IMG/VR virus record: IMGVR_UViG_3300028833_000053
Source of the DNA: a virus
Taxonomy: Duplodnaviria; Caudoviricetes
DNA length: 64,000 nucleotides
Strand: one strand, 5' to 3'
Shown here: in pieces, positions 663-48,655 of the stretch
Layout: every line of letters begins with the position of its first letter
How positions within the stretch are numbered: position 1 is the first letter of the stretch
Made by a program: the position numbers and the translations under genes
The notes under the pieces: generated by a model
What the model was told of the DNA's origin: nothing
The model's database searches: none
Seen by the model: only the letters and a program-made list of their open reading frames with translations

Positions 663-1004
663 ATGATTGGATTCGTCAAGATTGCGTTTGCGTCAATGTG
701 CTTGCTCCTTGCATCGGGGTGCATGAACATCTATACAAGGTGGCCGACAACACCAAGGTAGATTGAATCAGTTTACTAGTCAACTGGGGAAATGGCTGGA
801 ATCACGTTGATTGCGTCATTCCCATAGATGATGTCAGACAATGGTTCTCCGGATGGTTTCATCCCCGAGAACCTTATTTCAATCCCATTCCTGGGATTGC
901 CATGTTTGATTGACACTGTTCTTGAAGTCGCGGTTGACACAGTGTGCTTGCCCTATGACTGGCCCGTTTCACATTATAGGAATCGGAAGCGCGAGGGATT
1001 TTGA
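663..1004 (+). CDS. YceK/YidQ-like small lipoprotein, 113 aa, TAG read-through
   Basis: Signal peptide and lipobox (MIGFVKIAFASMCLLLASG-C); C-terminal LIDTVLEVAVDTVCLPYD motif; in-frame TAG at 759, 777, 825; ends TGA. Absent from the ORF track. Confidence 0.7.
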
Positions 1005-1013
1005 AAGCAATTT

Positions 1014-1021
1014 TGTAAATA
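1014..1021 (+). promoter_or_regulatory. Putative late promoter motif TGTAAATA
   Basis: Variant of the recurrent GTAAATA motif upstream of virion-like genes. Confidence 0.45.
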
Positions 1022-1105
1022 ATATTTGAATTGAACATATTCAATGACTAGTCACAGAGGATTGTTCAAGGACGTTAACAAACAACTCTATAGAGGAATA
1101 CTGAA

Positions 1106-1840
1106 ATGAAGAAACTGAACATTACGAAGAAGCAGTACGATGAGAGCAAGTATTTCAACAACAAGTACGGTGCGCTCAAGTTTGTTTCTGAGAGCGGCAA
1201 GCTCTACAAGACCGACAAGGGCGTTGTTCTCGCTCTTGAGGGAACCGAAGAGGAAGTCCCCCCAAAGGAGGTCACCGAGGACGAGGACGAGCCTGGAAAA
1301 GGTGAGGGCGAAGAGGAAGTCACGGTCAAGAAGGAAGACCTGGCTAATGCTCTTCAGGGCGTGATTGATACCGTCAAGGACATCGCCGCCGAAAACGACG
1401 TTGAACTTCCCGAAGAGGAGCAGGACGACGGCGAAGGAGAGGGCGAGGATGACGATGATGAGATCGACCTTGAGTTCGATGAGGGCAACGAGGAAGTCTG
1501 CCCAACCTGCGGTGCTGCCATGAAGAAAGAATGCGGTGGTGTCAAGGAGTGCTCTGGTGCCGGTTGCGTCAAGAAGGAGTGTGGCAAGCCTGGTTTGAAG
1601 GCCGAGTCCGCCCGTATGCGCCGTGCAAAGATGGTGCGTGAGTCCCTGCTCCGCCGTGCCCGTGCGAAGAAGATTCGCGAGTCCATTGAGCGTCGTCGCC
1701 GTGCAAGGAAGGTTCTTGAGTCCATCCGCCGCCGTCGTGCAGCGAAGAAGGTTCTTGAGTCCGCCCGCAAGCGCCGTATTGCCAAGAAGGTGATGGAGTC
1801 ACGCAAGCTTCGCGCCCGCCGCGCCGGCCTGAGAAAGTAA
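1106..1840 (+). CDS. Putative internal head/core protein: acidic middle, Arg/Lys-rich repeated C-terminus
   Basis: SD GAGG; N-terminus shared with 18973 gene; D/E-rich middle; six basic units separated by xxES. Confidence 0.6.
   Translation: MKKLNITKKQYDESKYFNNKYGALKFVSESGKLYKTDKGVVLALEGTEEEVPPKEVTEDEDEPGKGEGEEEVTVKKEDLANALQGVIDTVKDIAAENDVELPEEEQDDGEGEGEDDDDEIDLEFDEGNEEVCPTCGAAMKKECGGVKECSGAGCVKKECGKPGLKAESARMRRAKMVRESLLRRARAKKIRESIERRRRARKVLESIRRRRAAKKVLESARKRRIAKKVMESRKLRARRAGLRK
1601..1837 (+). repeat. Degenerate coding repeats, (R/K)-rich unit plus xxES
   Basis: Recurring cgccgtgc...aag(a)aggttcttgagtcc units. Confidence 0.75.
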
Positions 1841-1866
1841 GTTCAACCCAAATTGAACCGAAAAAT

Positions 1867-1899
1867 AAATGAGGATGCCCTTTACGGACGTCCTCATTT
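1867..1899 (+). terminator. Intrinsic terminator-like hairpin
   Basis: AAATGAGGA...TCCTCATTT inverted repeat after the 1840 stop. Confidence 0.6.
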
Positions 1900-1916
1900 G
1901 CTTTATAATTAACTGT

Positions 1917-2426
1917 ATGGATTATGACGCAGAAACCCAGTTCTTGAAAGACCACAAGTCCTTGATACTTGATGGCATTGAATACATTGACAACAGTGTG
2001 TTCCGACCCAACTTCCTCACGGCAATGGAGGAAATGAAGTGGAAGTGCGTCATCGTTCCAGATAATGAATGGACACCCAGCAAGTGGTTTCCAACGGAGA
2101 CCGACAACTATCGCCGCGAGACAAGGGTGTTGAATTCATATATCGCCAAGAACCCTTCTTTGTTTGGCTACACGGACAAATATGGGTGGGCGTACCATGA
2201 ACTTGTGCATGTTGCCATCTACACTGGACGTATGCCCGAAAGGTACATGAACTTGGAATCTCCGTTTGAATATCCCTTGAACCGTGATGAAATCTATTGC
2301 TATGGCTATCAGATGAAGCACTTGATTGAATTCAAGAAAAACGGAAACTTGATGAGGTTCGCCCTTGGGAAGATTCCCGGACTCAAACCCAAACTTTGCG
2401 TGTTGGCAAATGCTTTATTCAAATAA
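1917..2426 (+). CDS. Zincin-like protein (HExxH)
   Basis: YHELVH plus downstream DEIYCY; ATG 1917 lies after the hairpin. Confidence 0.5.
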   Translation: MDYDAETQFLKDHKSLILDGIEYIDNSVFRPNFLTAMEEMKWKCVIVPDNEWTPSKWFPTETDNYRRETRVLNSYIAKNPSLFGYTDKYGWAYHELVHVAIYTGRMPERYMNLESPFEYPLNRDEIYCYGYQMKHLIEFKKNGNLMRFALGKIPGLKPKLCVLANALFK

Positions 2427-2442
2427 ACAGAAAGAGGAATAA

Positions 2443-3525: not shown

Positions 3526-3547
3526 TAAATGGTAAATACCATTATCA
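3523..3547 (+). promoter_or_regulatory. Late promoter motif GGTAAATA (3531-3538) inside a hairpin reaching the next start codon
   Basis: TGATA-A-ATGGT-AAAT-ACCAT-TATCA; the last A is the A of ATG 3547. Confidence 0.6.
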
Positions 3548-6500
3548 TGAATAGCGCATTGACAAGACCATAGTCCCTACAGGAACTCTACAAGACATAC
3601 TTTTCGTTTGCCAACCGGTTCCAATTCACTTCTTTGCTGAGAAACTACATTCAGAACGAGGAATGGAAGGACCGTTCATAGGAGCCTGTATGGGAGGTCT
3701 TGTCGAAAATTTCTGACGACATTGGTGCCGTGTTGACGGATGACATCGTGAACTACACGCGAAACGTTGTTGATGTCAATACCTGCAAGGTTCCGGAACT
3801 CATTGAACATGCGCAAATGCTTTCCTACAGGCTTGACCACCTGAGGAATTCCTATGAGTTCTTTCCGAAGCGCATACAATGCCTTGTGGATATTTTTTCC
3901 GTGAATCCGGAGTATTTGTTGGGTAATCATCAGAACCACGTTCTTTCCGATACCGTCATAAAGGAAATACTGATTTACATTAGGGAGAACGTCAAGGACA
4001 GAAAGCCGTTCATCAACGACGATGCCATTGACAAGTTGCTGGATGACCCTCATAGTTTGACGGATTCGCAAACCTATTACAATTTCGTGTAGAACTTGTT
4101 TTACGTTTCCTTGGTGGAGGCGTTGTCCGCGCCATATTCTTTGGAAGATGCCCAACCAATTGTGTTCAATCTTCTTTTCAAGGAACGCCAGAACCAACAG
4201 AACGTGCTTTCGCGCATAGAGGAATACAAGTCTTGGATTGACAGATACATTTGGAACGAGATTGAATATCCCTTGAACGACTCGGGCTTGGCGAACACGA
4301 TTTACGGCAACGTTGAAACCATAAAGAATCAGAAGCAGATTTCAGTCAAGTTCAATCCATTCAAGATTGCAGACCACATCTACTTCAACGGATTGAATCC
4401 AAACAACGGGCTTTCGGACGATGAAATGTACTTGGTTGAAATGGTTCTTGACTACCACGCCAAGACGAAGTACGATTACGAAGCGGAACAGTTCGTGGAT
4501 GACCTTTCCACGCAATATGCCTATTACAAGGAGTTGGAGTTCTGTGAATACGTGAAGTTGGTGATGTTCATAGTGAACAACCTCAATCAATTCCATTTGT
4601 CCGGGTTGACATATGACATTTCCAGCAACAAGTTCATGAGCGAAAGCCGCGACGATGCCAATTGCATGAGAGTGGTGAACATCTTCAATGAGGATGGGAA
4701 CATCGTTGAATATCATGGTGGAAGAGTTGCGTTGAACCATGATATTTTGCTGAAAGTGGCGAAGTTTCTAACTGAATACGTGTTTCACATTCAGGGAATA
4801 CGCGAGAACATGAAAACCATTGCGCATAAACACGCGATGAGGGGTTCCGCGGCTTTGCTTGTGCATATTGTGAACGACTATCTCGTGAAGGAGCTGCCGT
4901 TCGTCCGTGACATGATGTATGAAGGGGAAGAGGACACCCCAATGAAGTTCCTTTGGGAGACCGACTCCCAGTTCCGAAACTATGGCAACGTCAAGGTTCT
5001 CGAATACGAGGACGACAACGAGTATTTCAACATCGACCCAGAGAAGGATGTGTTGTTCACGGAAAGAACCAATGACCGCTATTGGGAGCAGCTTGAGAAC
5101 ATGGGGTATGACGATACCTTGGGCGTTCTCACGAAGGGGCAGATAAAGGACTTCTACAGAAACGTTCTTGGAATGGGAAGGTTGCAGCCCTCGAAGTCCA
5201 TGCACTATGACGATGTTGCCGATTTCCTTGTTGACCTTTTCAAGATTGGCGCGAACCCTATTGAATGGGACAAGGGCGAGGAAGAATTCTACAATCCCAT
5301 TGACGACATAGAAAACAAGTCCGAAGAGGACTATGGCTACACCAAGGAAGAGCGTTTGGAGGTTCAGAGGAACACGGAATTGCGCAAGAACCAAGAAAAG
5401 CAATTCAAGGAATACAGTGGAAACGATGACTTGGTTGGGGACAGCATATACGATCTCTTCAACAGCAAGTTGTTCTATTGGAAGAACACGGACTATTCCT
5501 CACACGCGCTTCATCCGTTCATGTACAACTTGAAGTTGTGGAACAAGTTGAACAACATCATCATCAACGGTTACCGCGACTACATTGACAACGACCTCAT
5601 AGACTACTTGTCATCAAAGACGAAGTTTGACGAGATTTTCGGAAAGTTCGGAGAGGGAAGGAAGTTCTGGAAGTACAACGTGGTGGATTTGAGCGGCTAC
5701 ACCACACGTTATGAGGCGGCGGTCAAGGATGAACGCCTTGAAGACGACAAGAACAGCATCAGTGAACTTACTGGATATGATGGTTTGTTCTATCCAGAGG
5801 CGGCTCGGGCTTTCTTGAATTTGTATAATGCACCCAACCAGGACTTTACTCTTACAAATGAGTTCTTCAAGGAAAGTGGAAACAAATTCTATAAGGGCAA
5901 GAATGAATTTGTCGCCGCCATATATTCCATATACTGGCAAGATTAGACAACCGAGTTGTACCAAAAGGATTCGGCTACCGGGATTGAGACAAGCACAAGA
6001 GATGACTCGTTCTACACAAGATGGTATTCACACCTGAACTACACAAGGAGCGAGTACCAGAAGATAGCCCTTCAACTTTGGTATTGGCGCGACAGAATAT
6101 GGGAGTTGATTTCCATTGAATACCCAATGACCAGGTATTGCCTTGACGTTCAGGGAAATTCCTTGATATTGGTTTCCACGTTCCAGGATGGGGATGACGA
6201 AAAGAATCCCTATCTTGTTGACCTTGCCATTGCATAGGAAGATGTTGAACAGAACAGAAACAGAAACAAGAACACAAGTGTTTCGTTTTGCGACAACAAG
6301 TTGAAGCGTCCAAGCGAGTTGTGGATACGTTGGAAGTCAAATCCAATTGCCTTGCCTGCGTTTGATGCGTTGTACGACCACAAGACGGGGGATTATTGGT
6401 TTGACTTTTACCACCGCACCGATGGCAACACCGAAATGGGTCAGCTTACCCACACCAACAGCGATTGCAACGACAATTTCAAGGTTGTTCTGTTGAAGTG

Positions 6501-9500
6501 GATTGCAAAGTACGAAAAGACGATAAAGTGGACGTATTAGGAACCCGGTTCGGATTCCGAAGCCCGTGTTTTGAGTGGAAACAGGCTTCCGGTGTTCTTT
6601 GACATGGAACAGTCGGCCAACGTCCTGGCTCTTGCTTCTTGGTATATGATACCATATATTGACACGGATGGCATAGTCCATGTTGACTCCAATGGCGAGC
6701 AGTTGAACGTGGTGTGCTGCTCCAAGAATCCGATGCACATAATCTCCTTGGAGCGCACAAGCATGAATCCATCGGAGTATTGCTTGGGCGAGTATTCCAG
6801 TGAGACCTCTTTGAACAACACGGACGTCTACCTCAATTGGTTGTTTGACTCCTACCAGTATTGTCAAGCCAATGGCGCGTTGATGATTCCCTTGTATTCA
6901 TTTGACTGCACGGATGAAGAGGGAAGCGATTACCACCAATATGCCAATTTGAGGGTGTTCTTGGTTCCCGCCCAGGAGTTGAAGGGCGACACGCACGTTG
7001 TGAACGACAGGTTGGTTCAGTTGAAGGATATGTGCGTTGACTTGAACCAGCAGGTTGATTTCAACGATACGGACAAGAAATACAGGTTCGACTATCCGAT
7101 AAAGGTTTGCCGCAACACGCGCATGGTGTTCTCTGCCTATGACCGAAACGGCTCAAACAGGATGAAATGCGCGTTCCTTGGCGTGTTTGACGCGAATAAG
7201 GAACATTATCTCGGAAACAACTATGCCAACACTTCTTGCAAGGTAAGTTCTTGCATGGCGAAGACGAGGTACGAGTACGATTCACAGTCAACAGTTGACC
7301 TTGGATTGACGAAGGGAAGATACTACCTGGAAAACATTGATTCAGATCCAAGCCAGTATGGGGATGACAAGGATACGTATCTTGACAAGTATGTTGCCAA
7401 GGAGTGCTTCAATTCCTACGATTCCAACGACAAGTACGTGTTTGTGCTGGATTTCGACCCATCCATAGACCACAAGAGCATGTTTGACATTTCCTGGAAA
7501 ACGGGACTTTCAACATACACCTACAACATATTGGGTGACGCCGGCTACATTCCACATTTTGCCTACCAGTCATTGATACGCTACAGGGCCGATGACAAAG
7601 ACGCCGGAGTTGCATATACTTGGAAGAACTCCTACACCGAAAGCAAAGACCACATGCAGTTTGAGTTGTTGGGACTTGACGACAAGGCACTTCCGTTGAC
7701 ATATGAAGCCATAAGCAAACTTGTGGTTGAGGACTTGACAGACGAATGCAGTACCTTGCTTTGCCCGGCAAAGCTCATGGATGACATCTACCGCATTTGG
7801 TGCGAGACAAGGGACGTTAAAACCAGATTGTATTTCCCCCAGTACGGAGAATACCAAAACCATTTCCACAATGAATTTGTGGACTATCCCAACCCGGAAG
7901 TCAGCTTTGGATTTGACTTGAAAGACGAGATTGAGGAAAATGGTGTCAAGGTAAAACCCTGTGGCAAGGGAATTACGGTCATGGAGGTGGTGAATCCACT
8001 TGACGAAAATTACCAATACAAGGACAAGGGTTGGGGCAGCAAAACCAAGGTCATAGATTGGGATGTTTCTGAGACAGTTGGCTTGCGAGACGATAATGGG
8101 AATCCGGTTTTGCAAAAAGACAGCCGTGGAGAACCGTTGATGTTCAACAAGACCACAGGAAAGATAATCCACAAGGCATCCGGCGAAGACCATTATGAGG
8201 ACGACTTTGGCGTTGCAGTCGATCCAACGGAAGTTGAAAACAACTATGAAACGCGCCCTGTTGACATTGGCTTGTTTGAACTTGACCTGCCCCAAAGCGA
8301 ACAGGGGATAGACGAGGATGATACTCTGACTGCCGCGCAAAAGGCGCAAAGAAAGCTTGACGCTTTCAAGAAGTTGCTTGACGAATACTATGTATACGTT
8401 GTGAGGACCGAAAACGGCAACATATTGAACGAGAAGAGGTACATTCTCCCGCCGACAAGGATTTCGGAGTTCATCTTGGGAATGGGCGACCGCGATGGAT
8501 TCATGAAATGCAGTCTCAGTCCATACCAAACGCCAATCATACAAGACGAGCATTTTGTCAATACACAGGTTGTGTTTGCCGGAACGCCCAATCCGTTCTC
8601 ATACGACTTGAATGGAAACAGGATATACTCGAAGCCGGAGGAGTTGCAATATGGAAATTCCTTGGCTGGAGTTGATTCCATAGAGTTGAAGATTGACATA
8701 GTTGGGTTTGTTGACGAAGAGACGTTGAAGTACGACGACACTGGCAATCCAATTATGACAACGGACAAGGAGCCGTATGAACCAGATTGGCCCGTGTACA
8801 TGACTTCCACGCGCAAGTTCCTCAAGCCAACTTTGCGTTTTGTCAAGAACATGCCAAGCGGTGAAAGGTTGATAGACAAGGTTCAATGGAACACGAACTT
8901 GGTTCCGGATGGGGAAGTCACGGTGATGTTCTCCCACAAGAACCTTGACAACTTGGCGAAGTACCACATAATGAACAGACAGTCAAACCTGTACTTTGAT
9001 GGTTCGTTGCCCAAGAATTCCGAACACAAGAACCAATACAAGTTCTCGGACTTCAAGTACAGCGAATCCGTGATGATATACAAGGAGGGTGACAAGTGGA
9101 AGTCGATTGAGACGGATTCCGAGAACAACCCCATATTGGAGTTTGTGATGGATGACGTTGGTTCGGAAGGTGGAAGTACGTCGGATAACCTTCCTCCATA
9201 CTATGTTGAGGTGGAGAAAGAGACTGGGACGGAGAAGTGGTATATTGAACAGGACAGGCTTGTTCCAGATCAAGTGAAGACGAAGCAATTTAACGGTGGA
9301 ACGTATGTTGAAGATACCGAACACTCTGGAAAAGAGAAGTTTGTGGGCGGCGACAAGCACAAGATAGAATCCATTTGCAATCCAGACCTCAATCCAACTG
9401 ACATGATATGCCATGTTGGTAGAATAGGGAACACCATAATATACGATGTTCCAAAGCCCGGTGATGTCAACAACAACCCGTCCGACCAAGGCAATGAAAC

Positions 9501-12500
9501 AAAATGGGAAGGTGGGTTCCGCTGGGCACATAAGGTGAAGTCGGAGCCCGAGAAGTATCTTGACTACTTCTACATTGCGAACGGTGGCTTGGCGTTCAAG
9601 GTCAGCGAAGAGTCATATTCCTTCGCGGAAGCCATGTCAAGGATACCTCCTTTCTACATTGACTTTGTTACAAGAAACAAGCTCCAGGACTTGAACAACA
9701 TCCAGGTGTTGAAGGAATATTCCACGTTCATCCACCAAAGCGAGAATCCCGACAAGGTGAAGGAATGCGGTAACTTCAATCCCCTGATTGTGGATGCCAT
9801 ATTGAGGTATGGCGTTGAGCAGAGGGAATTGAGCAGACTCAAGAGAGACGGCCAGGGGATTCCGATATTGAACGGAAGTGGGGAATACATATACATTGAC
9901 GATGACAACAACATGGTTAAATATGATGCATCGGGGAACGCCATCAACCCATTGTCTGTGAAGGTCATATGCACGGAACCCTATTCAGGAGATTGGGATC
10001 GGCACATACCGACATATATGCCATACACAGGTTTCTCCAGTGTCAAGCCCGGCACTGTGGCGTCTTCCGTCAATCAAAGGCTCATAGAGTTGAACAACAC
10101 GTCTGGAACAAGCACGTTGCTTCTTCAGTTGGATGATGGCGAGATTGACGACTATCTGAGAATATACACCAACTACGTCAGAGTTGACGATGAATATGGT
10201 GATTACCACTACGACCTGTACTTCAACATACAAAATCTCTTCAATTCTCCGTTCGAGTACATTTCCACCGTGACCGGACAACCCAACGTCCTCATATTGA
10301 AGGATTCCTACCTTTATCTCACGGGTGACAAGTTCACGAAAGTCCAGGACGGGGCCACTGGAACATGGCACAACGAGATAGACGATGACAAGGTTGCCGC
10401 GATAAAGGAAGGTGGGGAACTCACGATCTATGGTCAGGTGAAGACATATTCTGGCGAGAAGTTGAGTGATGTCCAAACCATAAAGTTGTTCACTTACAAG
10501 ATTCACAACATATCCGACGACAAGCCGAAGTTCCTCATAGAGAAGACCTATGACATAACGAAGTCCACGTTGCAAGGGAACGTCACGAAGAACATCAACA
10601 TAGAGTTTTCCGACGTTTTGTGGACGTTGGACGAGGTGGATTTTGAAATAAAGGACAACAAGGACAACAAGTTCAAGGAGTTGAAGAATGACGTAACAGT
10701 TGTACAGCCCGTGAAGTTGCGCTACAACTGGGACAGAGAGGACGACTTCAGGATAAAGTCAATTTCCTTTGACCTCGTGAACGATGTCATAGACTTCAAC
10801 TAGGTTCCGAAGTTGTGTGAATATTGGGTTCAGGACAGGACTTTGCGCGACAAGACAAGTGACGGGAAGAACTACCCATACTATGACCATTGGAGCGACA
10901 AGTACATGAAGTTGGAAGTGGATGACATCACCTAGATTCCAAGAATGACCTTGATGTACGATGAACTCAACGGACACAATTTCGAGACAATCTATCTGAG
11001 GTGGAAACTTCCAGCGGGTTGCCGCATAATGGACACGATTGACCGGCTTGGTGGATATGTGTTCAGTTCCACCGCCGCGAACATAATGGCTGATTGCAAC
11101 AGCAGCAGAACAACGCCAAAGTTCAACGTCACCTTGGGTCATGTTGTTGTTCGCGTACATGAACCATAGAAAGACGGGGAACGTGGAAAGATGTATTTGG
11201 GAATGGAGCATTCCTCCACAAGGAGGCAGAATGGCTATGTATTGAAAGGATTGGCCGAAAGCATTGAAGCCGCGTTCAACCTCAATCCAAATACGTATGG
11301 GGCAGCCGCGAATCCGACCTTTGAGGACGCAAGTGGCACATACAAGGACAGGAACAACTAGACGCACAATGTAAGCACAACGCATGTTGCAGTTCCAGAA
11401 ATAGAGATAGAAGATGCGGTTCTCAGTGCCTCGTCAGGGGAATCCAACAAGCAGCACTCGATTATGCTCAACGCGAATGGCGGAACGATTGGTGGAAAGT
11501 CCCGTGTTGTGAAGGTGTTTGCCCATGGTCAGTTGTTTGGAAACTTTGTGCCTGACACTTGGGGCAGGAACATATTTGATGGATGGTACAACACAAAGGG
11601 AGTTCAAATAACTCCCGAAACGCCAATCAACTCCTCCGATACGTTGTATGCACGTTGGAAGATGGCAGAGTGCATAGTGACGTTCAAGATGAACGTAACC
11701 GGTGACATCACAGACAATGGATATATCAATGGGGACAAGGTTGTTGTTACACAGTCCTTTGACAGTGAAACGGGCGAAATGAAGAAGAAGTACCCTCACG
11801 GAACCAAGGTGGGTGAACTTCCAACGTTCTCCGCGTCTGGCGAGTGGAGTGCCTGCACACCAAATGGCTGGTGGACCGACAGCATCAATGGAGACCAAGT
11901 TGGGTCAGACAAGAGCATTGAGGACGATGTAACGTTCTATGCGCACTTGACTGGGAAGACCACCATCAAGCGCGTGAACAACAGTACTGGAAATAGATAG
12001 GACGTGACAATTGTGCGCGATGGCCGTGAACATTTGATAGCCTCGAACTTTGCACCAAACGTCTATTTGATGTCAACGGACAAACTTGACTTTGCAAAGG
12101 ACTTTGAACTTGTTGTTTGCGGTGTAACGGGTGGAAATATAACCAACAACCAAGAAATCTTTGGTATGACTGACGGCACGGCGCACGGTGGCGTTCCTCC
12201 GTATACGCATTCCGAACTTGAACTTGGCGCATATCAAAACAAGGCTATGTTTGAATTTACGCCTGGTAGAGTTGACACCTATGACGCAATAACGGCAAAT
12301 ACGTTGTATTATTACAAGGTAATCAAGAATGGTGCAAAGCTCTATGGATATCTCAGTAAAGATGGCGTGAATTGGGACTTCCAGAGAGAAGGAACGCCCA
12401 AGACAGTAAATTCCTGGTTTGTTCTTGGTTTTGATTATGATGTCACTTCTGAACAGGAGGACAGTGAATATTGGCGTGGCACGATAGACTTGACGGAATC

Positions 12501-14304
12501 CTACATCAATATTGGCGGTTGCAAGTACGAGTTCATCTTGAACATATTGATGATATTCAACGCCAACACCGGACACTTTGAGGATGGCACCGAAATAATG
12601 CGCGTTGAAAAGGATATGGGAATGTCGTTCAAGTTCCCCAACGCCTACAGGACGGGATACGTGTTGAATGGTTGGTATGACGCTTCCACCGCCGGAACAA
12701 AGATAGGAATACCCGATGGACAGTATATCCCGGACAAGTCACGCACGGTGTTTGCGCATTGGGACCCGATTAGGTACTATGTCAACTACAATGGAAACGG
12801 GAATACATCTGGAACCATGTCGAAGTCCGAGCATTTCTATGACCGTACATTGAACCTTGCGGAAAATGGCTTTGCTAGGACATACACGGTGACGTTCAAC
12901 GCCAATGGCGGTGATTGTTCAACGTCGGAGGTCACGGCAACACGTCCATTCAAGGAATGGAGAACCAATGCCGATGGAACAGGGACGAAGTTGAACAACA
13001 GACATTCTGAAGTTGTCAATTTGACGGCAATCGAAAATGAAACGAAGGAAATCTACGCCCAGTGGAGCAATGCCACAATAACGTTGCCATCCGCTACAAA
13101 GGCAAACCACACATTTTCCGGTTGGTATGATGCATTGACGGAAGGACACAAGATTGGGGACGCTGATGCAACCTATACATATGCGCCAACAGCCAACAGC
13201 ACGTTGTATGCGCATTGGGATATAGTCAAGTATGGCATTACACTCAATGCCAATGGCGGAACCATAAATGGAAAACCCCAGGACGTTGTGCAGTATGGTC
13301 ATGGTTCAGAATTTGGAAATCCATTGCCTGAAAGGGATGGATACGTCTTTGATGGTTGGTATTCAGAAGCCACCGGTGGAACCAGAATAGAGCCTACAAC
13401 AAAGATAACCGAAGCTGGAACGTACTATGCGCATTGGATTGAACAGATAGTTGTGACATTCGACAAGAACACGCCTTACAACGTCTATACGGTAAAGGGT
13501 GATGGAAGTGTCGGAGCATATTATTTCGCAGATGGTATTGTGCCAAAATTGAATGATTGGAACGGCGTTACAAAAGTGATTATGCTAGATGGAATAACCG
13601 AAGTAGGAAGTGGCGCATTTGATTCTTGGCGAAATTATCCGACGCAACCAAAACCAAACTTGCAGGAAGTGGTTTTCCCATCAACACTTAAAATCATCAG
13701 AGAAAATGCTTTCAAGGAATGTGAAAACTTGACAAGTGTGACTATACCGAACAGTGTTACGAGCATCGGGAATTATGCGTTCAGTGGGTGTAAAAAGTTG
13801 ACGAACTTGGTAATTCCTGACAGTGTAACTTATATGGGGGAAGGTGCGTTCAATCTTTGCAGTGGCATTGAAAGTATTACAATAGGCAATGGCATTACCG
13901 AACTTTCCGATCATGTGTTCCATAGTTGTGGCATGATAACCGGAACATTGAACATTCCAGATGGAGTGACTACTATTGGAGTAGCTGCGTTGGCCGGGCT
14001 GGGCGTATCAAGAATAACGTTTGGCAGTGATTTGACAACAATTAAAGATTCGGCGTTTGACTATTGTAGCAATTGCAAGATATTTGATTTTAGAAAGGTG
14101 AAAACTGTTCCGTCCTATCTAAATGAGTCTTGCTTATTCTATAGAATACCAGACGATAAGAAGATTATAGTTCCCGATGAGTTGTATGATTCTTGGAGAA
14201 GTACAGAACCCTGGAACGCAACAACAGATTATTGGGATGGTAAGATACATAATCACCAACAATGCATCGTCAAGGCAAGTGAATCTTCACTTGGGAGTTT
14301 ATAA
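3547..14304 (+). CDS. Giant virion-like protein (3585 aa): baseplate-wedge-like N-terminus, Listeria-Bacteroides (InlB B-type) repeats, C-terminal BspA-type LRR
   Basis: One frame with only TAG interruptions (3571, 3679, 4090, 5944, 6235, 6538, 10801, 10933, 11167, 11359, 11998), ends TAA; NANGG...F.GWY...LYAHW repeats about 11460-13450; VTIPNSVTSIGNYAFSGC LRR about 13590-14200. Confidence 0.85.
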
Positions 14305-32524: not shown

Positions 32525-32855
32525 ACTCATTGAGAAACTGAAGGAATACGGTGACGAAAAGACCCGTGACCTGGCAACTGTGAGGATTCTCAACCGCGAT
32601 GGTGGGGTAATCGACGATCACATTGACGCATTTGACGTGAAGTTTGGAATCAAGAGCGTTGACATTCCCCTTGACGTGTAGACCTACACGCCGGCGGAAG
32701 TGGATTGTGGCGATGACTGGTCCGCATGGGACGAGGATTATGACGGGTATTATGACGAGGACTGGGAAGAGTATGACGATGAAGAGGAAGAGGAAGCGGG
32801 CGAAGATGAAGAGGACTATGGCTGGGGCGACGATGAAGAATCATGGAAACCATAA
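32511..32855 (+). CDS. Small protein with a TAG-gated highly acidic tail (114 aa)
   Basis: SD AGGAG; MTVNELIEKLKEY start; TAG at 32679; D/E/W/Y-rich tail ending TAA 32853. Confidence 0.7.
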
Positions 32856-39413: not shown

Positions 39414-39451
39414 TGGTAAATAGAGAATGACAATTGAAGGTGAGTAAAAAC

Positions 39452-40121: not shown

Positions 40122-40129
40122 GGTAAATA
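40122..40129 (+). promoter_or_regulatory. Putative late promoter GGTAAATA
   Basis: Recurrent motif upstream of a recoded gene. Confidence 0.6.
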
Positions 40130-40154: not shown

Positions 40155-43100
40155 ATGGCTCAACCAAGGACACAAGATAACCAAAAGGTATTTCAATCGG
40201 CGACATAGAACTTCAAGTCCTTTGTCGGTGCGGTTGACAATGTGTCGTCGTCAAAGAACATCAGTGAAATCTACGACAACATGACAAAGTTGTTTGACGT
40301 TTTCACCCAAGGTGCTTTGACGGGTCAGGGCGCAAACTCCGAGATTTTGCTGCGAACTGTCTACCGTTCCTTGTCGGATGACTTCCTGAAGATAATCCAG
40401 GACACGGACGCCGTTGAAAAGATAGTGGAACTCATAAAGAGCAAGCAGGAAAGCATAGACCCTGAGCAGGTTGACCAGGCTATGGTTTCCGAGACCACGA
40501 AGAAGGTTGTCACGAAGACGCTTGACCCATACGAGTGCGATCCAATGTCCGTGGTGTTGGATTTCGTTGACGAGCTTCAAACGGCAATTCTTCAAGTCAA
40601 GCTCAACCTCTCGCGTGAATACGAGAGGAAGAAGCTGGCTTATGCGAAATCCTATGAGGGACAACAGGAAGATCTTGACCGCCTCAATCAGGAATACACC
40701 GAGCAGGACGAGGCTATGGTGGAAGTCCTTGAACAGATGTCCGAGGACGAGGAGACTTGGAAAGAGGATTCGCTTGAGAAGTTGGAGAAGTTGCTTGAGA
40801 CGTTCAATGAGATTGGCAAGGGCAAGGATTCCAACTATGAGTTGTTGCAGGGTGTTGACAAAACCCTGTCCACCGACAAGCAGATTCAGCAATTCTTGAA
40901 GGAGAAGCCACCGAAGTTCTCTCCGAAGAAAACGCTTGATGCCATAAAGGGTGTTGGGCAGTTGAAGAGCAAGCCGGACGTCACAACCGTTGAGAGCAAG
41001 ACCCAAACCAAGACCGTTGTGAAGTCCACGCAAACGGAAATCAAGAACACGGTTGTGGTGAAGGAAAAGGCGAAGAAAGACGGAAAGAAAGTTCCATAGC
41101 CGAAGGTTCCTGAAAAACCAGTTGCGAAGGACGAGAAGAAAAAGGAAACGCCTGTAAAGGAAAAGACACCCGAAACGCCGACTCCGGTGAAGAAGGATGA
41201 GGCAAAGACGCAGACCCCACAGGTTCCGGAGAAAACTCCAGAACCCATTGGCAAGAAGGGTCCGCCACCAATCCAGCAGGAAAAGATAAAGGTTGCTCCG
41301 CCTCCACCATTGCCGGTAGTTCCACCTCAAATCGAGAAAGAAGAAAAGCCGAACGAGGATGAAAAGGCTAAAAAGCCCATTATGGAAAAACCCATAATGG
41401 AGAAGCCCATTATTCAAAAGCCGGTAATGGGAAAGCCGATAATAGAAAAGGCGGTTGACGAAAAACCCAAGGTTGAGAAACCAACTCTGGAAAAGGCAAC
41501 GAAGGAAAAGCCGACAATTGAGAAACCAAAGGTTGAACCAGTATAGGTATAGAAGCCAACCTTGGAGAAGCCAATGGTCGAGAAGCCGACGGTTGAAAAG
41601 CCCGTCGAGCAAAAGCCAATTGTTGAAAAGCCTGTAGTTGAAAAACCCAAAGAGGGAAAGACCACGGTTGAGAAGCCCAAGGTTGAAAAACCTAAAGTTG
41701 AGAAGCCAATTACAGAAAAACCCGTTGTTGCCAAGCCAATTGTTGAAAAGCCAAAGGTTGAGAAGCCGACATTTGAGAAGCCAAAGGACGAGAAGCCTGT
41801 AGTTGAGAAGCCCGTTCAACAAAAGCCGAAAGTCGAGAAGCCTCTTGTTGCGAAGCCGGTGGAGAAGAAGCCTTTGATAGGCAAGCCGTTGGTGAAGAAG
41901 CCCATTTTGGAAAAGCCGACGGAAGGGAAGCCCATTGTCCAAAAGCCATTGGTCAGGAAGCCTCTCATACAAAAGCCTGTTCTGTCAAAACCAGTTCTTG
42001 GAAAGCCGACAATGGGGAAGCCCATTTTCCAGAAGCCAATCACGCAAAAGCCCCTTCTTCAGAAGCCAATAGTTGAGAAGCCCATAAAGAAGAAGCCGTT
42101 GTTGGAAAAGCCGAAGGTTGAAAAGGCGAAGGTGGCGAAGCCGAAAATTGAAAAGGTCAAGTCAAAGGCCGCAAAAAAGGCTCCTGCCAAAATAGTCAAA
42201 AAGGCTGCAAATGCCGTTCCAAAGTCCCCAATGGGGAAAAAGACGCCCGACCCGAAATTGGCGCAAAAGAACTTTGCAAAGGAGTTGGACAAGACCTTGA
42301 ACGCCGGAAAAGTTCAAGAGCAGAAGTACACCAAGCAGTTGGATGTAATAGAGAAGTTTTTGGCAAAGGACGAGAAAGACGATAAGCAAAAGCACGCCGA
42401 GGATGCAAAGCAGCACAAAGAAGATGACATCATCTTCAAGAAGATGCAGGAGAAGGAAAAGAAGGTAAATGCTGCGAAGGACAAGGCCGAAAAAGAAAAG
42501 CGGGACGAGGAGAGGAAAAAGCAAGCCGCAAAGAAGAAGGAGGCGCCGAAGGCCGTCAAGGCGCAACCCAAACCCGCGTCGGCTCTTGGAAAGAAACCCG
42601 CTCCAGAGAAGCCAAAGGACACCAAGCTCAAGGTGAAGCCCAATGCGGGAATGTGTACGTGCCCGATATGCGGTTCGCAACACCTTCCTGGAATGCACTC
42701 ACATGGCGGGAAGAAAAAGGGTGCAATGCCAATGCCGATTCCCGTTCCAATGGGGAAGGGAAAGCAGGGCAAGTTGGCGCAACCCGCAATTCCATTGAAT
42801 CCACTTGGAGGTGACTAGTCCGAGGGTGGAATTCCACAGGACAAGATTGTGTCCACCCTTGGCACAATCCACGACAACTTGGGCAAGACGATGAACAACA
42901 AGAAGTTCAAGAACTCCTTCATGCTCAACTACAAGCCGATTCAAAAGGGCGTGAAGAAGCAACTTGACAAGGTTGGTTCGGACGAGAAAACCATCAGCCA
43001 GGACTTGGCGGAAACAGAGAAGGGCATCAAGAAGTTGAAGAACAAGAAGAAGGGCAGCTTCCTTTCGAGGTTGATGAACGGCGGCATAACCGGACTCATA

Positions 43101-46100
43101 TTCAAGGTCATAGGTGGATTGATTCTCATTGCCCTTGCAAGAATCGCGTTGAAGAAGTGGAAGGAGGCGTATATGCCTCCGACCGACGGCTCCACGATGA
43201 CCATATTCGGATTCCAGATTCCCGGATGGGACACCATAAAGGCAATTGGAATAGGCATATACAATTTCGTCACCGTGGGATTGATGAACCACTATGACAG
43301 ACTCAAGTTGTTCTTTGGAAACCTTCACAACCAACTTTTCGGCAAGAAGGGGGCAATACGAAGCATGGCGCAGGTTCGCCACATATTGCGCAGAATAGTT
43401 TGGGCGTGGATTATCGGACAGACGAAGAAGGCCGCGCGCGGCCTTTGCGACTGGCTGCTTGACATCTTGGCAGTCCCCTTGAACGCCTTGGCTCCTGGCG
43501 CGGGGCTTGTGTTGAAGTTCCTCATCAAGCTCCTCCCGGAAATATACTCGTTCATCACCACCCAGATAATGCTCTTGTGGAGCAAGAACAAGCGCGATGC
43601 GGAAGAGGCCGAAACCGCGGAAGCCGAAAGCATTGGAATGGCCGTCAATTCGGGAACAACCACGGCGATGAGCATGATAAGTTCCCAGCTCAAGGGTTTG
43701 TCCTCTGGGGTGAAGCCATTCAAGAACCAGGCGGCGAACCTACCCGGTCTTGAAACTCAAAAGGGTCCGAAAGGAAGGGGCCCGAAGAAGATGGCCATAA
43801 TGCGCCGCTTCCCAATCAAGTATTACAAGTCCTTTGACAAGGCGAAGAAGATGCAGAACAAGAAGTTTGAGTCTGACATGGAGGAGAACAAGCAGAAGGA
43901 CGAGAAGCGCATAAACGGCGGGGACGTTCTCATCAGCCAGATCGTCGAGGACACGTCAAAGATAAACCAGGCGGTTGACGAATTTACTGGAAGTATTGGA
44001 ACGTGGATCCATAGTTGGGACAATGAGAAAGTTGCGAAAATAAGGAAGTATGCCCCGAAAGAATATGAAGATGCAGACAATCGGGTGTTGGCAGATAAGT
44101 GGAAATGGGATAAAGAATTCAAATAGAAGGTAATTCATAATTACACGTCGTCGATTAGTCAGGAGATATACAAGAGAACCATAGTGGTGGAGCTGAACAA
44201 GGTTTCCGCGTACATGAACGCGCTTGGAAAGTCCTAGAGATTCAAGAACGTGAAAGGTCCGCTGTATGATCCAGTCAAAGGGTGGAATCCTGGATACAGG
44301 GTGTATGCCTCCGATTTGAAGACGGCGATTCCATTCAATCCGCTTGAAAAGATACACAGCAAGGCCGACATTCCAATTGGCGAGCCTGCGAAGGCCGAAG
44401 CCGATTCAATTGGTTGGATGCCCTTCAAGTGGATTTCCAATGGAGTTCCCGTGAACGTGCATCCTATAAACTGGGAATTGGCTAGGGCGAACGCCATATG
44501 GAACTTGTATAACTGGTTGATGAAGAACCGTTTTCAGAACAATTTGAACAATTGGAACACAACCAACATTGAAGATTTCAAGAAAGCCATTCTTCCAGAC
44601 GTGTTTGCCGACTGGAGAAGCTGGAACCAGCCTGTTGGTGATCACAGAAGCGAAGCCACATGGGGCAAGGCATATCCGCCAGAGACATATCAATATGGCG
44701 ATCAATTCGTACGGTTCATAAATGCTTTCCGCGCTGGCAAGATAGATCATGGGAACAACAATCTTGACACCGCGATGAAATTGAGAGACCCGACGTATCT
44801 TGAAAAAATGTTCGACAAGATGCACAAGAAGTTGGGCGACTATGGCACTGCGGCGGTTTCCGGCGCTGCCATAGGTGGTGCTGTCGGTGGTGCGGTTGGA
44901 GCCGTTGCTGGTGCGGCAATAGGTACCGCAGCGGTTGGTGTGTACAAGGGCGCAAAGTGGGTTGGACAGAAGATGGACGACTTGCAACGCGCTTTGTCCT
45001 ACGACCAAGATCCAGACGGAGAGGAGGAAGAATAGACGGAAGAAGTGGAGGAAGAGCAAAGCAGCGTTCCTCTCATAGGTTGGTTGATAAACGGCGTCAA
45101 GAAAGTTGTCAAGGTCATCAAGAAAATCGTCAAGAAGGTGAGCCGCAAGGTCGCAGCCCTCAACCGAATCAAGGAATGGCGCGGCAAGACCTATTTTGGG
45201 GTTAACTATGGTGACATCCGCGATTTCATGATTGACACTGGCGTTTTGCAGTTGTTCAGTCAGGGATAGATCATCAAGCCAGTCCAAAAGACGATTCCTC
45301 TTCTGGACAAGCTCATTGACATGAAGGTGATAGGGAAGGGGTCAAGCGTGGAGGATGGCAACTCGATGCATTCTCTCATGGAGGCTTTCTTCGCATACAA
45401 CCGCATTGAGGGATATGACTGGAAGAAAATGCAAAATGACGAGAGGGCGCAGGCTGCTTTCGCCCAGTCCCTTTTGGAATATCTCGCCTTGAAGGTCATT
45501 CCTCAGTGGAACATAGTTGAAAAGCTCCTTTCAAACGACGTTACGAAGAAAACCGACGAAACCAAAAAGGCGATGGATGAAGGTGTGCAGGTTCTTGCAA
45601 ACTTGCTTTCATTCAAGGGCATAATGGAACACCTTTCAAAGCATCTCCGATTCCCCAACATGAAGGTCAAGGTCATAGACTTCTCCAATGCAAGGGACGA
45701 TCACGACAGGGAGTTGCTTGAACAGTTCAGAAAAGACCAGGGAATTCCCAACAGCGATGAAAAGAACCAAATACTTGCACAGTGGCAAGGCGTTTGGTCG
45801 AAGATTCCAAGCATGAACGATGAGGAGCTTCAAGGCAGCTTGGATAACTTGAAGAAACTCATTGGGGTTGCGGCATTTGAAGCGAAGTACACCGGAGAGT
45901 TCACTTACGAGAAGCAGTTGCGCAAGTTCTACACCGCCATGATAAAGGAGAAGGACGAGCGTTTGAAAGCACAGGCCGCAGGTGACAAGATTGTTCAGAA
46001 GCCGGGTGGGATAGAGCGCGTCATGGAAGGTCCGCCGCCGAAGACCATGTTGGAAATGGAGGAAGAACGCAAGGCAAAGGAAGCCGAGGAAGCAAGAAAA

Positions 46101-46598
46101 GCGGCGGAAGAAGAAGAGAAGCGCAAAGCCGAAGAGGAAAAGAGGCTGCAAGAGGAGGCGAAACGCCAAGAGGAATTGAAAATTGCCCAGGCGAAGATTG
46201 CCGCCATGGAAGCCATCAAGAAGCAGGAGCAGAACTACGAGAACATCTTGGAGAAGATGGTGCAAGACCCATCAACGGTGACTGATGAGGAATTGAAGTC
46301 ACTTGGTGAAGACGTGAAGAACTTGAAGCAGGAAGCAGAAAACAGGATTGCACAACTGCCAAGAGAGGAAAGGGAAATGAAGCTGGCGTTGATTCGCGGC
46401 GACAAGCTTTCTGAAAAGACCTTCGCCGAGTTGAAGGAAACCGCAGTGGGGTTGAGTGGAAGTCTACAAGCCTACATCTAGGAAGTGAACCAAATTCCAG
46501 TTGGCTCTATAATGGCAATATAGGAAACGCCAGGAACGCCAACAGAAAGCAAGATATAGTTGCAAGACTCCGACAATGTGGATATGGGCGACGAATAA
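40155..46598 (+). CDS. Giant tape-measure/baseplate-hub-like protein (2147 aa) with a KPxxE repeat tract
   Basis: One frame interrupted only by 12 TAGs (40206, 41097, 41544, 41550, 42816, 44124, 44235, 45033, 45267, 46479, 46521, 46557), ends TAA; coiled-coil-like and hydrophobic segments, glycine zipper. Confidence 0.8.
41373..42152 (+). repeat. About 52 tandem KPxx(E/Q) pentapeptides (15-nt period)
   Basis: Register is kept across the two TAG codons. Confidence 0.9.
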
Positions 46599-46629
46599 AA
46601 AGACTTGGTTGGATAAGCCAAGTCTTTTT
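46597..46629. terminator. Bidirectional-type terminator hairpin
   Basis: AAAAAGACTTGG...CCAAGTCTTTTT; TATAAT follows at 46632. Confidence 0.75.
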
Positions 46630-46654
46630 AGTATAATTGAATGTGACGATTTAA

Positions 46655-46691: not shown

Positions 46692-46781
46692 TGAGCAGTG
46701 GTGTACGGCTTGCACAGACGGTCTCTAAAACCGTGGCTTCTGAAGCGAACGGACTGGGTTCGACTCCCAGCTGCTCAACCA
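46692..46781 (+). tRNA. Amber suppressor tRNA (anticodon CUA), long variable region
   Basis: Acceptor TGAGCAG/CTGCTCA + A + CCA; D-stem GTGT/GCAC; anticodon arm ACGGT-CTCTAAA-ACCGT (CTA at 46725-46727); T-arm CTGGG-TTCGACT-CCCAG. Confidence 0.92.
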
Positions 46782-46795
46782 ATTTGGAGACTGAC

Positions 46796-47083
46796 ATGGA
46801 AAAGAAAATTGACTTTGAGTTATTGACTGTAATTGACGAATCCATTGGTGATTCGGCAAGTTATGTTGATGCACTGGACAAGGTTATCAAGTGGGAGAAG
46901 GAGAATCGTGGATTGAAGGGATTCCATGTTTCCGCGCCTCTTGACGTGATGTGCGGAACAAGGAAAGTGGAAGACCCCGAAAAGGAAGCCGAGGAAATGG
47001 CGAGGGGTGTTCTGTTGATGCATCGCGCAGGGGCGTTGGGGAAATGGAAGGAAATCTCAGGTGACGAATTGGAGAGGATGTAA
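46796..47083 (+). CDS. Hypothetical protein
   Basis: SD GGAG after the tRNA; likely start 46796. Confidence 0.7.
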   Translation: MEKKIDFELLTVIDESIGDSASYVDALDKVIKWEKENRGLKGFHVSAPLDVMCGTRKVEDPEKEAEEMARGVLLMHRAGALGKWKEISGDELERM

Positions 47084-47085
47084 AA

Positions 47086-47334
47086 ATGTTTAATTTGTTC
47101 TATTGGGGTTTGTTTGGAAGTCATTTGGAAGAGGAATGGGAGCGCGAACATCCTGAGGAATCCGCGGAGCAGAAATACATTGAACAGCGTTGGGAACTTC
47201 AGGCGCAGTTGAGGAAATACCCAAATGCCAGAACCACAATCCGGATGCTTGACAAAGAGAACTACCGCACGTATGTTAGGCGAATGCTGGAGATTGGCGG
47301 TTCAAGGTCGATAAAGCAGTTTGAGGATATTTGA
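47086..47334 (+). CDS. Hypothetical protein
   Basis: Operon packing. Confidence 0.65.
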   Translation: MFNLFYWGLFGSHLEEEWEREHPEESAEQKYIEQRWELQAQLRKYPNARTTIRMLDKENYRTYVRRMLEIGGSRSIKQFEDI

Positions 47335-47337
47335 GAT

Positions 47338-47406
47338 ATGAGACGTGTGTTTGTAATAAGAAAGGATTTGCATCTGAAGCCCGGCAAGATGGGCGCGATG
47401 GATTGA
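47338..47406 (+). pseudogene. Orphaned 5' end of pth2 (MRRVFVIRKDLHLKPGKMGAMD*)
   Basis: Closely matches the N-terminus of the 48665 gene. Confidence 0.8.
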
Positions 47407-47427
47407 TTTTGTAGTAAAAACTACACA

Positions 47428-47487
47428 GGACAGATTGACTCTAATCAATTTTGGCTAGGTTTGCATAACGCCTAGCCATTACTGTTT
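47428..47487 (+). ncRNA. Putative three-way-junction regulatory RNA (C4/CI-like)
   Basis: P1 GGACAG/CTGTTT, P2 ATTGA/TCAAT, P3 TGGCTAGG/CCTAGCCA; loops complementary to downstream sites. Confidence 0.5.
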
Positions 47488-47554
47488 TAGACTAAAATGG
47501 TAAATACTTATAAACTTGTTAGAGCAAGGTTATAAAAATAAAGGTAATTAAGTT

Positions 47555-48655
47555 ATGCATCGTTATACTCAAGAAGAATTATAGTCTATATTTTAGGACT
47601 AGAAATTGGGTGAGGAAATAATTCCTCATATTAAAAACAATAAGATAGATATTGTTTTGTGGAATCAACGATATAAGCAACAATGGAAATAGATTTAGAG
47701 ACAGATGAAGAAGGGTTTATTGTGTCCGGTTTGTGGCACAATACTATTTAAGTTTTATGAGAAACATTTAGCACAGCATAATCTTACTGTAAAATAGTTA
47801 TATGATTAGGTATATGGTATAACTGAATCACCCAAATGCCCTGTGTGTGGAGAAGCAACAGAGTTTGTTAAGAACAAATGGTTTTATCGTAAATTTTGTT
47901 GTAATGCTCATTAGTGCAGAATTATAAATGAGACTGACGGATTGAGGAACGGATGGACTATTGAAGATATTAGAAATCATAATTCCATGATAATAGAACG
48001 TGGAAGAAAAGTATGCGATATAGTCAATAAAAAATATGGAAGTCAGTTTTCAATAAAATTAACTGATGAATAGCGTCTTAATAGAGGGTTAATAAATGAT
48101 GATGACTATTAGGAGTGGCAGACATAGTAGAAGTTAAAAAAATCAGAAGCCGGAAAACTTGGAGGGAAAAAATATTCTTCGTTATATGGATATAAATTAT
48201 TGAAGACATGGGGTTACAAAACGAAAATATTTTTGACTGAAAATAAATGGTTCATGCTTGAATCTTAGTAGGAATTGTTTCATTTATTGAAACGTGTATT
48301 TATCGACGGAGATAAGATTGAAACTATGAGTAATGCAATATTTTTAGAGAATACGACTAATTTATTTTCTGGAACAAGTGCTTTTACGGATTTGGTTATA
48401 GATAATAATGGAATAAAAACAAATTATGAAGTTCATTGTATAGATGATGAAGACACTATAAAAAGAAAACGATATTGTTCTGAATTAAATGGATATGAAT
48501 TTGTATTGGAAGATATTACTTTATACACATATCCGAATGGAAAATACATTGACCAATTAAGATAGTTTATAAATGTAGATGAAATTTATGAAAAGTTGAA
48601 ATATGAAAATAAATGTGGTAATGTATTTGTATTGAACTTATATGATTATGTATAA
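47555..48655 (+). CDS. Zinc-finger plus PD-(D/E)xK-like putative endonuclease (366 aa, 15 TAG codons)
   Basis: Two CPVCG motifs, KFCC; C-terminal ES..E...FTDLVI...YEVH; GGTAAATA at 47499-47506; ends TAA. Confidence 0.7.

Follow-up and report, generated by a model that had tools for sequence, protein, structure and literature searches.

Apparent reading of TAG as glutamine in a sparsely recoded, very large T4-like phage

The IMG/VR record IMGVR_UViG_3300028833_000053 (Duplodnaviria; Caudoviricetes) provides a stretch of viral DNA of 64,000 nucleotides, which was analyzed as a whole and is called the window in the following. Eight of its 64 genes contain in-frame TAG codons, and a tRNA with the anticodon CUA, tRNA(CUA), is encoded between the two of these genes that are richest in TAG. 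The eight open reading frames (ORFs), referred to below by their first coordinate, and the tRNA with its promoter are as follows.

663..1004, + strand: lipoprotein-like ORF of 113 residues with three TAGs (759, 777, 825), a signal peptide and the lipobox LLASGC
3529..14304, + strand: giant ORF of 3591 residues with 11 TAGs; the true start is probably the ATG at 3547
14351..15301, + strand: papain-like cysteine peptidase with one TAG at codon 9 (Pfam Peptidase_C1, 2.5e-9; PHROG peptidase)
15421..18957, + strand: protein of 1178 residues, rich in low complexity, with one TAG (15769) and TAGTAAATA upstream
32511..32855, + strand: ORF of 114 residues with an acidic tail and one TAG (32679); the least certain read-through
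35529..38225, - strand: protein of 898 residues with one TAG (36806) and TGGTAAATA upstream at 38250-38257
40155..46598, + strand: protein of 2147 residues with a KP repeat, membrane-like segments, a coiled coil and 12 TAGs; TGGTAAATA upstream at 40122-40129
46609..46637, + strand: sigma70-like promoter TTGGAT-17-TATAAT, assigned to the suppressor tRNA; it and the 40155 terminator hairpin overlap
46692..46781, + strand: suppressor tRNA(CUA) of 90 nt found by ARAGORN, with U1:A72, G2:C71, A73, an encoded CCA, a D loop that is short and a variable region of 19 nt
47555..48655, + strand: candidate zinc-ribbon and PD-(D/E)xK-like nuclease of 366 residues with 15 TAGs (4.1% of codons), in an island of 29% GC

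The window apparently comes from a T4-like phage that is very large, at about 400 kb. It carries topoisomerase II and a clamp loader, and its complete relative G004 (locus L031; 418,068 bp with terminal repeats) has a gp23-type capsid. The nearest topoisomerases from phages in GenBank are just ~33% identical. Phages of 140-190 kb that share the tRNA type of the window do not have the Gp23 family, and they are therefore assigned to a different lineage. The protein P0003 found no match in the tRNA-sharing phages G001-G003, and a locus search with MetK alone returned one weak relative only.

Reading frames across TAG

A sequence-only reading of this DNA had claimed that TAG is a sense codon in the eight genes, and its counts were reproduced exactly: there are 45 in-frame TAGs in the eight frames. 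None of the fused frames contains an internal TAA or TGA, each of them ends in one of these two codons, and TAG is needed as a terminator by none of the 64 called genes. When genes were called by codon score with TAG as sense, the 63 genes terminated in TGA (43 genes) or TAA (20 genes) and never in TAG; the two ORFs that were added by hand terminate in TGA and TAA. Under code 11 there are 19 apparent TAG stops, which belong either to the fused frames or to two ORFs that truly start past a TAG. The trinucleotide totals on the + strand are 393 for TAA, 267 for TAG and 1717 for TGA. Since TGA is more than six times as frequent as TAG, 45 in-frame TAGs without any in-frame TGA or TAA are impossible to explain by random decay.

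The coding signal was measured as a codon-usage score, which was trained on long TAG-free stretches. The fused frame scored positive and the other two frames negative in every TAG-bounded segment of at least 30 codons, that is in both giant ORFs and in the 15421 and 32511 ORFs; the score was weak in a few very short segments and in the 663 ORF. A comparison of coding density between code 11 and a code with TAG as sense, which had been suggested as a check, gave a modest gain from 88.1% to 90.2% with the codon-score caller; with a longest-ORF caller the density rose from 91.0% to 95.6%. The observation that a TAG occupies the E/Q position in the KP repeat of the 40155 protein also held, with the residue preceding KP being E in 25 cases, Q in 8, G in 5, K in 4 and TAG in 1.

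Homologs would be split at the TAG sites if these were stops, and they were found to be continuous. Those of the 663 ORF in G004 and in a second relative, G005, run across all three TAG sites. For the N-terminal 1150 residues of the 3529 protein 218 homologs were found, of which the long ones (P0023-P0025, 2156-2429 residues) are unbroken at the TAG sites. The 40155 protein has a conserved C-terminal motif beyond its last three TAGs. The 32511 ORF has a high coding score before as well as after its TAG, and its homolog is continuous in G004. Taken as a whole, the frames, scores and homologs strongly support the view that TAG is a sense codon and is read through in the eight genes of the window.

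Two other ORFs were considered as TAG genes and rejected. A promoter at 22513 places the start of the 22498 ORF past its TAG, and homologs of the 51990 ORF align only from residue 63 or 83 on, so that its start also lies past the TAG. Because both start after their single listed TAG, the number of TAG genes remains eight.

The products of the TAG genes are mostly poorly characterized. For five of the eight, Pfam and PHROGs gave no family or only weak matches driven by low complexity, and neither giant protein had a match in GenBank phage records. The 663 ORF abuts the preceding gene, the stop of which ends at 661, and the ORF is conserved in G004 and G005; it is a candidate outer-membrane lipoprotein, perhaps with a role in lysis (spanin-like). 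The C-terminus of the 3529 protein contains Listeria-Bacteroides repeats and BspA-type leucine-rich repeats, which makes a surface or host-binding protein likely. A good ribosome-binding site precedes the ATG at 14351. The PHROG matches of the 15421 protein (virion structural protein) and of the N-terminus of the 35529 protein (tape-measure or tail-lysin-like) are both weak.

Glutamine at TAG and the suppressor tRNA

In order to assign an amino acid, TAG was masked as X in the alignments and only real sense codons were counted as partners; the substitution profile of each residue was taken from the same alignments. For the TAGs of the window (75 pairs) the Gln model was ahead of the next one by 62 bits, and Q was the commonest partner (22 of 75). 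With all TAGs included (353 pairs) the lead of the Gln model grew to 372 bits, with Q again the commonest partner (118 of 353). Ala, Glu, Lys, Ser and Thr were the runners-up in the substitution scoring. As partners, K and E rank next to Q, and W, Y, L and S are rare.

The 47555 family has six full-length homologs, all of which are TAG-recoded. Since the database had translated them with TAG as Q, their Q residues could not be used at face value; we therefore fetched the DNA and aligned the codons. The invariant columns 48, 50, 174, 193 and 244 contain TAG, CAA or CAG exclusively; column 174, for example, reads TAG CAA CAA TAG TAG CAA TAG. CAA is two substitutions away from TAG, so mutational proximity cannot explain columns in which the two alternate.

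The 40155 gene allowed a five-way codon alignment of the window with L012 (a 219-kb ENA contig), L013 (a gut contig) and the IMG/VR contigs G004 (L031) and G005 (L032). Column 1795 of this alignment is TAG/CAG/CAG/CAA/TAG and column 2224 is TAG/AAC/GAG/CAA/CAA, and the window itself has CAA or CAG opposite many TAGs of its relatives. The sole TAG of the 35529 gene faces CAA in the homolog of L012. The second TAG of the 663 ORF faces CAA and the third faces CAG in both G004 and G005. The residue at conserved TAG columns is thus consistently Gln, encoded by true CAA or CAG codons, in agreement with what the sequence-only reading had expected as the probable meaning. The assignment of TAG to Gln is strongly supported by these codon alignments.

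The tRNA(CUA) is unusual in its structure. Its sole match in Rfam is the tRNA-Sec model RF01852, with 33.6 bits where the gathering score is 47, and with the anticodon CUA instead of UCA. Because this match is weak and the variable region is 19 nt long, Gln was not assumed for the tRNA beforehand. According to ARAGORN, seven IMG/VR phage contigs (7.8-193 kb) and the gut contig L009 also carry a tRNA(CUA) gene whose anticodon arm and variable region are the same as in the window. This family shares a 7/5 cloverleaf consensus, in which 9 of the 23 pairs show compensatory changes; the 7-bp acceptor stem and the 5-bp T stem both covary, and the 12-bp branch of allo-tRNAs (8/4 or 9/3) was not found. 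The label 'Pyl' that ARAGORN gave to the tRNA reflects the anticodon only, as the variable region has 19 nt and that of tRNA-Pyl 3 nt, and no Pyl genes were found among the window proteins scanned.

Several features of the tRNA are of the Gln-identity type, namely the weak pair U1:A72, G2:C71, U35 and G10. The window tRNA lacks two features of the E. coli rule, G3:C70 and G73; most of its relatives carry G73. The tRNA-Gln(UUG) of G004 agrees with the window tRNA in U1:A72 and G2:C71, at positions 8-14 (UGGUGUA), in the D stem's 3' strand and in A73 and CCA. The anticodon loop CUCUAAA is the loop of the phage tRNA-Trp with C35U, and the same change in tRNA-Trp produces the Gln-inserting amber suppressor su7 of E. 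coli. In the complete relative G004 no Gln/Glu-type synthetase and no release factor were found, which makes charging by a host enzyme the simplest explanation; we infer that such an enzyme charges the tRNA(CUA) with Gln.

The variable region (46735-46753) contains the invariant sequence YUCUGAA (UUCUGAA in the window), which agrees in 6 of 7 positions with the anticodon loop CUCUGAC of the phage tRNA-Gln(CUG). Just two invariant pairs close the YUCUGAA loop, and the alternative hairpin lacks conservation. Of the two candidate hairpins in the variable region, one is without covariation and the other has a mismatch in one subgroup. It is conceivable, as a tentative idea that we consider rather unlikely, that YUCUGAA is a decoy second anticodon loop, which keeps the Gln identity by giving the host Gln-charging enzyme the G36 that is missing from CUA. 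No paper that describes a Gln suppressor with a decoy anticodon loop was found in the literature. If true, the decoy loop would explain how the phage reads TAG as Gln without a synthetase of its own.

The position of the suppressor tRNA is kept among relatives. G004 has a conventional 77-nt tRNA(CUA) with an unpaired 1:72 and with G73 (L031, 9648-9724) just after its homolog of the 40155 gene, and a promoter and leader homologous to those of the window stand before the tRNA(CUA) of both G004 and L009. That a different tRNA occupies this locus, with a homologous promoter before it, suggests that lineages have exchanged the body of the suppressor tRNA and retained its location and promoter. The order in L009 is the C-terminus of the 40155 homolog, the long-arm tRNA(CUA), TGGTAAATA and the homolog of the 47555 gene. 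The IMG/VR phage contigs L020 (~480-580) and L029 (~1820-1925) contain the 3' half of the tRNA(CUA) from A36 on, preceded by unrelated sequence that ends in G; an interruption by a group I intron after U35 of the anticodon would look like this.

Distribution of TAG and a possible switch of code

The TAG codons are unevenly distributed. The eight TAG genes comprise 8,723 codons with 45 TAGs, and the 56 TAG-free genes comprise 11,079 codons with none. TAG makes up 9% of the Gln codons in the native TAG genes; the same share would predict ~26 TAGs in the TAG-free set (P ~1e-12). The absence of TAG from the topoisomerase II subunits, the clamp loader, MetK, the N6/N4 methylases and the sigma70-family factor was confirmed; a GNAT domain, a HAD RNA-repair domain and PTH2 (peptidyl-tRNA hydrolase) also belong to the TAG-free set. 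The sequence-only reading had further placed the TAGs in late or virion genes and in mobile genes. Of this, a genuine bias against TAG exists in replication and early-type genes, the late or virion part stands with moderate support, and the mobile part is plausible for the 47555 gene only.

Two types of upstream motif accompany this distribution, of which the first was searched for as TTGACW, a spacer of 15-19 nt and TATAMT.

21352, 22513, 26163, 32927, 34974, 51761, 54770, 57329: near-consensus sigma70-like promoters by pattern match, most of which end in TATACT
47499..47506, + strand: late-promoter-like motif GGTAAATA before the 47555 gene; other copies at 3531, 35003, 39415 and 40122 and, on the - strand, at 38250-38257

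The eight sigma70-like promoters compare with 0.06 expected; seven lie upstream of TAG-free genes, one lies within a TAG-free ORF and none precedes a TAG gene. For GGTAAATA there are six matches versus 0.86 expected. The shorter motif GTAAATA, which we take to resemble the T4 late promoter TATAAATA, has 11 copies, and all 11 are at or just upstream of an ORF start and in the orientation of that ORF. Of the 8 TAG genes 5 have it upstream, compared with 6 among the 56 genes that are TAG-free (Fisher P = 0.003). At 3529-3547 and 39415-39434 TGGTAAATA is located 9-11 nt before the likely start codon, and at 3529 it overlaps an upstream ATG; the transcripts from 3529 and 39415 would be leaderless or nearly so, or TGGTAAATA would have another role there. 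The sigma70-like promoter at 34974 directly precedes the copy of GGTAAATA at 35003.

The late or virion label of the TAG genes is moderately supported by the GTAAATA motif, by the synteny with gp25 in a relative, where L012 has a gp25 baseplate gene 9 kb downstream of its 40155 homolog, and by the weak PHROG matches. The virion-type support is modest and consists of this gp25 gene, of the BspA-type and Listeria-Bacteroides repeats of the 3529 protein and of the same PHROG matches. A further feature is the position of the first TAG, which falls within the first 21 codons in 4 of the 8 genes. Four of the five phages with a gene of the 40155 family have an early TAG in it, and the codons involved differ (7, 8, 10, 18, 21). 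This is suggestive, although not statistically strong: early TAGs may act as translational locks, or an early block may be selected for.

The gene at 47555 differs from the others in its surroundings. Its island of 29% GC contrasts with 47% GC of the genome, its relatives come from contigs of 26-34% GC, and the protein is absent from G004 and G005. The structure model (predicted local distance difference test, pLDDT, 75) gave weak but one-sided matches to the PD-(D/E)xK nucleases TnsA, R2 endonuclease, Bax1 and RecU. Some 22 first codons of PTH2 are copied as a short ORF at 47338-47405 upstream of the gene, and the full PTH2 gene is located directly downstream at 48665-49243; the same layout of partial PTH2, nuclease-like gene and full PTH2 occurs in L007, L008 and L011. 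The duplication looks like the scar of a nuclease-gene insertion. The GC content, the nuclease-like fold and the absence from two relatives make it plausible that 47555 is a mobile nuclease gene.

Two observations concern the TAG-free genes themselves. The TAG-free region includes, at 56876-57376, a HAD domain (1.7e-29) of the RNA-repair type known as 'Swiss Army Knife'. Four N6/N4-type DNA methylase genes, likewise TAG-free, occur as two adjacent pairs (30773-32524; 61001-63554), and MetK is encoded at 2443-3525; the four methylases together with MetK suggest heavy methylation of the phage DNA.

These results can be combined in a model for the infection. The tRNA(CUA) would compete with the host release factor 1 at UAG. 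Genes that are needed at once in an unmodified cell (replication, methylation, sigma factor, MetK) would avoid TAG and use sigma70-type promoters, and the large virion-type and accessory genes, several of them behind the T4-late-like GTAAATA, would tolerate or exploit it. Full-length products of the TAG genes would then appear only after the suppressor tRNA has accumulated, which would amount to a timed switch of code while a presumably standard-code host is being infected. We know of no bacterium that reads TAG as Gln.

The fused frames might be runs of small genes or decayed pseudogenes that share a frame by chance, with TAG still being a stop. Fragments under code 11 do often have a possible start soon past the TAG (e.g. 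TTG at 4096 and GTG at 12004) and many database homologs are short fragments, but 11 and 12 successive junctions that keep one frame, together with 45 in-frame TAGs and no TAA or TGA in spite of a sixfold excess of TGA as trinucleotide, are hardly compatible with chance. Long homologs are moreover continuous, conserved sequence persists past the last TAGs, TAG terminates none of the 56 TAG-free genes, and a tRNA(CUA) is encoded in the window; we regard this explanation as refuted for practical purposes, with virtually no probability left to it. It is also very improbable that TAG is sense for another residue (Ser, Leu or Tyr; Trp; Lys or Pyl; Glu) or is decoded ambiguously. The Gln model is at least 62 bits above A, E, K, S and T even though K and E are the next commonest partners, and the invariant columns are free of TCN, TTG, TAY, TGG, AAG and GAG. 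An anticodon loop one change from that of the phage tRNA-Trp would suit Trp, and a 19-nt variable region with the tRNA-Sec model as its sole weak match would suit other residues, but W, Y, L and S are rare as partners, the cloverleaf is 7/5 and not allo-tRNA-like, and no Pyl or Sec machinery was found among the window proteins scanned. Decoding as Ser, Leu or Tyr, which the long variable arm had brought into consideration, was ruled out by the codon alignments. A minor share of another residue at TAG would still be compatible with them.

A different objection accepts Gln and disputes the timing: TAG would drift into long, fast-evolving or acquired genes and be purged from short constrained ones, with no code switch at all. 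That TAG accounts for just 9% of the Gln codons in native TAG genes, that the most TAG-rich gene sits in a foreign-looking island of 29% GC with relatives from contigs of 26-34% GC, and that the TAGs of the 3529 gene are at variable positions all fit this explanation, as do the early-type sigma70-like promoter of the tRNA and the occurrence of the late-like motif before TAG-free genes. The complete lack of TAG in 11,079 codons, however, is far under the drift expectation, and none of the eight strong sigma70-like promoters is before a TAG gene. The early first TAGs, seen in half of the eight genes and, at codons that differ, in four of the five members of the 40155 family, resemble selection for an early block, and published recoded phages share the bias to late genes (Borges et al., bioRxiv 10.1101/2021.08.26.457843). 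We consider drift without timing possible but not likely.

The favored reading is that of a very large T4-like phage that reads TAG as Gln with its own, host-charged tRNA(CUA) and has TAG-free early-type genes next to TAG-bearing genes of virion type or accessory function. We consider it highly probable, and the following points speak against one or another part of it. The Gln assignment is drawn from sequence comparison, and in the codon test all relatives were TAG-recoded phages, so that the test relies on their true CAA and CAG codons. Most TAGs of the 3529 gene are at variable positions with Q, K, E, S, R and H as partners. The site at 32679 is the least certain one, with Cys and Leu as partners in a linker and a TGA adjoining the site in G005. 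The tRNA(CUA) is structurally odd and below the Rfam tRNA thresholds, and further decoders may be encoded elsewhere in the genome. As to timing, six TAG-free genes also have GTAAATA upstream, the TAG genes 663, 14351 and 32511 do not have the motif, and 32511 lies among early-type genes. The promoter of the tRNA(CUA) is sigma70-like and early-type, which alone gives no late timing and complicates the idea of a code switch.

Relation to known recoded phages and amber suppressors

Phages with code 15 (TAG to Gln) were reportedly described by Ivanova in 2014 and by Devoto in 2019. Recoding of TAG to Gln, phage suppressor tRNAs, a bias to late and lysis genes and rare phage synthetases and release factors have been documented (Borges et al., bioRxiv 10.1101/2021.08.26.457843), and Peters et al. 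(PMC9523058) report validation of code-15 recoding in crAss-like phages by mass spectrometry. The gut phage clades with code 15 include crAss-like, Lak, Garnet, Topaz and Agate phages and others (Borges et al.; Peters et al.). The phage of the window resembles them in that TAG aligns to Gln, a tRNA(CUA) is encoded by the phage and the replication-type genes are standard; its recoded codons also seem to be concentrated in genes of structural or late type. It also agrees with them in the absence of a phage Gln synthetase (here from the complete relative G004), with charging by the host assumed.

There are also clear differences from the code-15 gut phages. The lineage is T4-like, as judged from topoisomerase II, the clamp loader and the gp23 of the 418-kb G004. 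At 47%, its GC content differs from the low one at which the published route to recoding begins. With 8 of 64 genes and a density gain of 2-5 points, recoding is sparse; a variable region of 19 nt sets the suppressor tRNA apart; and the two giant genes are without a relative in GenBank phage records. A survey of jumbo phages (Anim Microbiome 2026, PMC13037316) found TAG recoding in hallmark genes, including the T4-type portal, with CTA suppressor tRNAs and sometimes RF2; in contrast to these phages, no release factor was found in G004. The survey counted a phage as recoded only if its coding density rose by 10%. With its gain of 2-5 points the window would be scored as standard code under this rule.

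Amber suppressors of E. coli that are charged with Gln include supE, a tRNA-Gln(CUA), and su7, a tRNA-Trp(CUA) with C35U. The window tRNA is like them in the anticodon CUA with U35, the weak U1:A72 pair, G2:C71 and the loop CUCUAAA, which equals a tRNA-Trp loop with C35U; it is unlike them in A73 (not G73), the compact D loop and the 19-nt variable region. Glutaminylation of TAG suppressors is cited by Borges et al. (bioRxiv 10.1101/2021.08.26.457843). Allo-tRNAs are characterized by an acceptor/T stem arrangement of 8/4 or 9/3 and by an identity for Ser, Leu or Ala, and some are nonsense suppressors (Mukai et al., PMC5389517). The long variable region and the compact D arm of the window tRNA are reminiscent of allo-tRNAs and of tRNA-Sec, but its stems are 7/5 and its codon aligns to Gln.

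This type of recoding is already known from gut phages, and the phage of the window is a well-supported new example and not a new phenomenon. What distinguishes it is the combination of a T4-like lineage of ~400 kb, a moderate GC content, sparse recoding and an oddly built tRNA; the amino acid, moreover, was established by codon-level alignment and not assumed. Screens that demand a 10% gain in density, as in PMC13037316, would miss such genomes and would fragment their largest genes. With an early-type promoter of the tRNA, sigma70-like promoters of TAG-free genes and T4-late-like motifs before TAG genes, the window is a compact test bed for the idea that expression is gated by TAG. The odd tRNA family, with members in seven IMG/VR contigs and one gut contig and with two interrupted copies, may show how hosts are brought to charge an amber suppressor with Gln.

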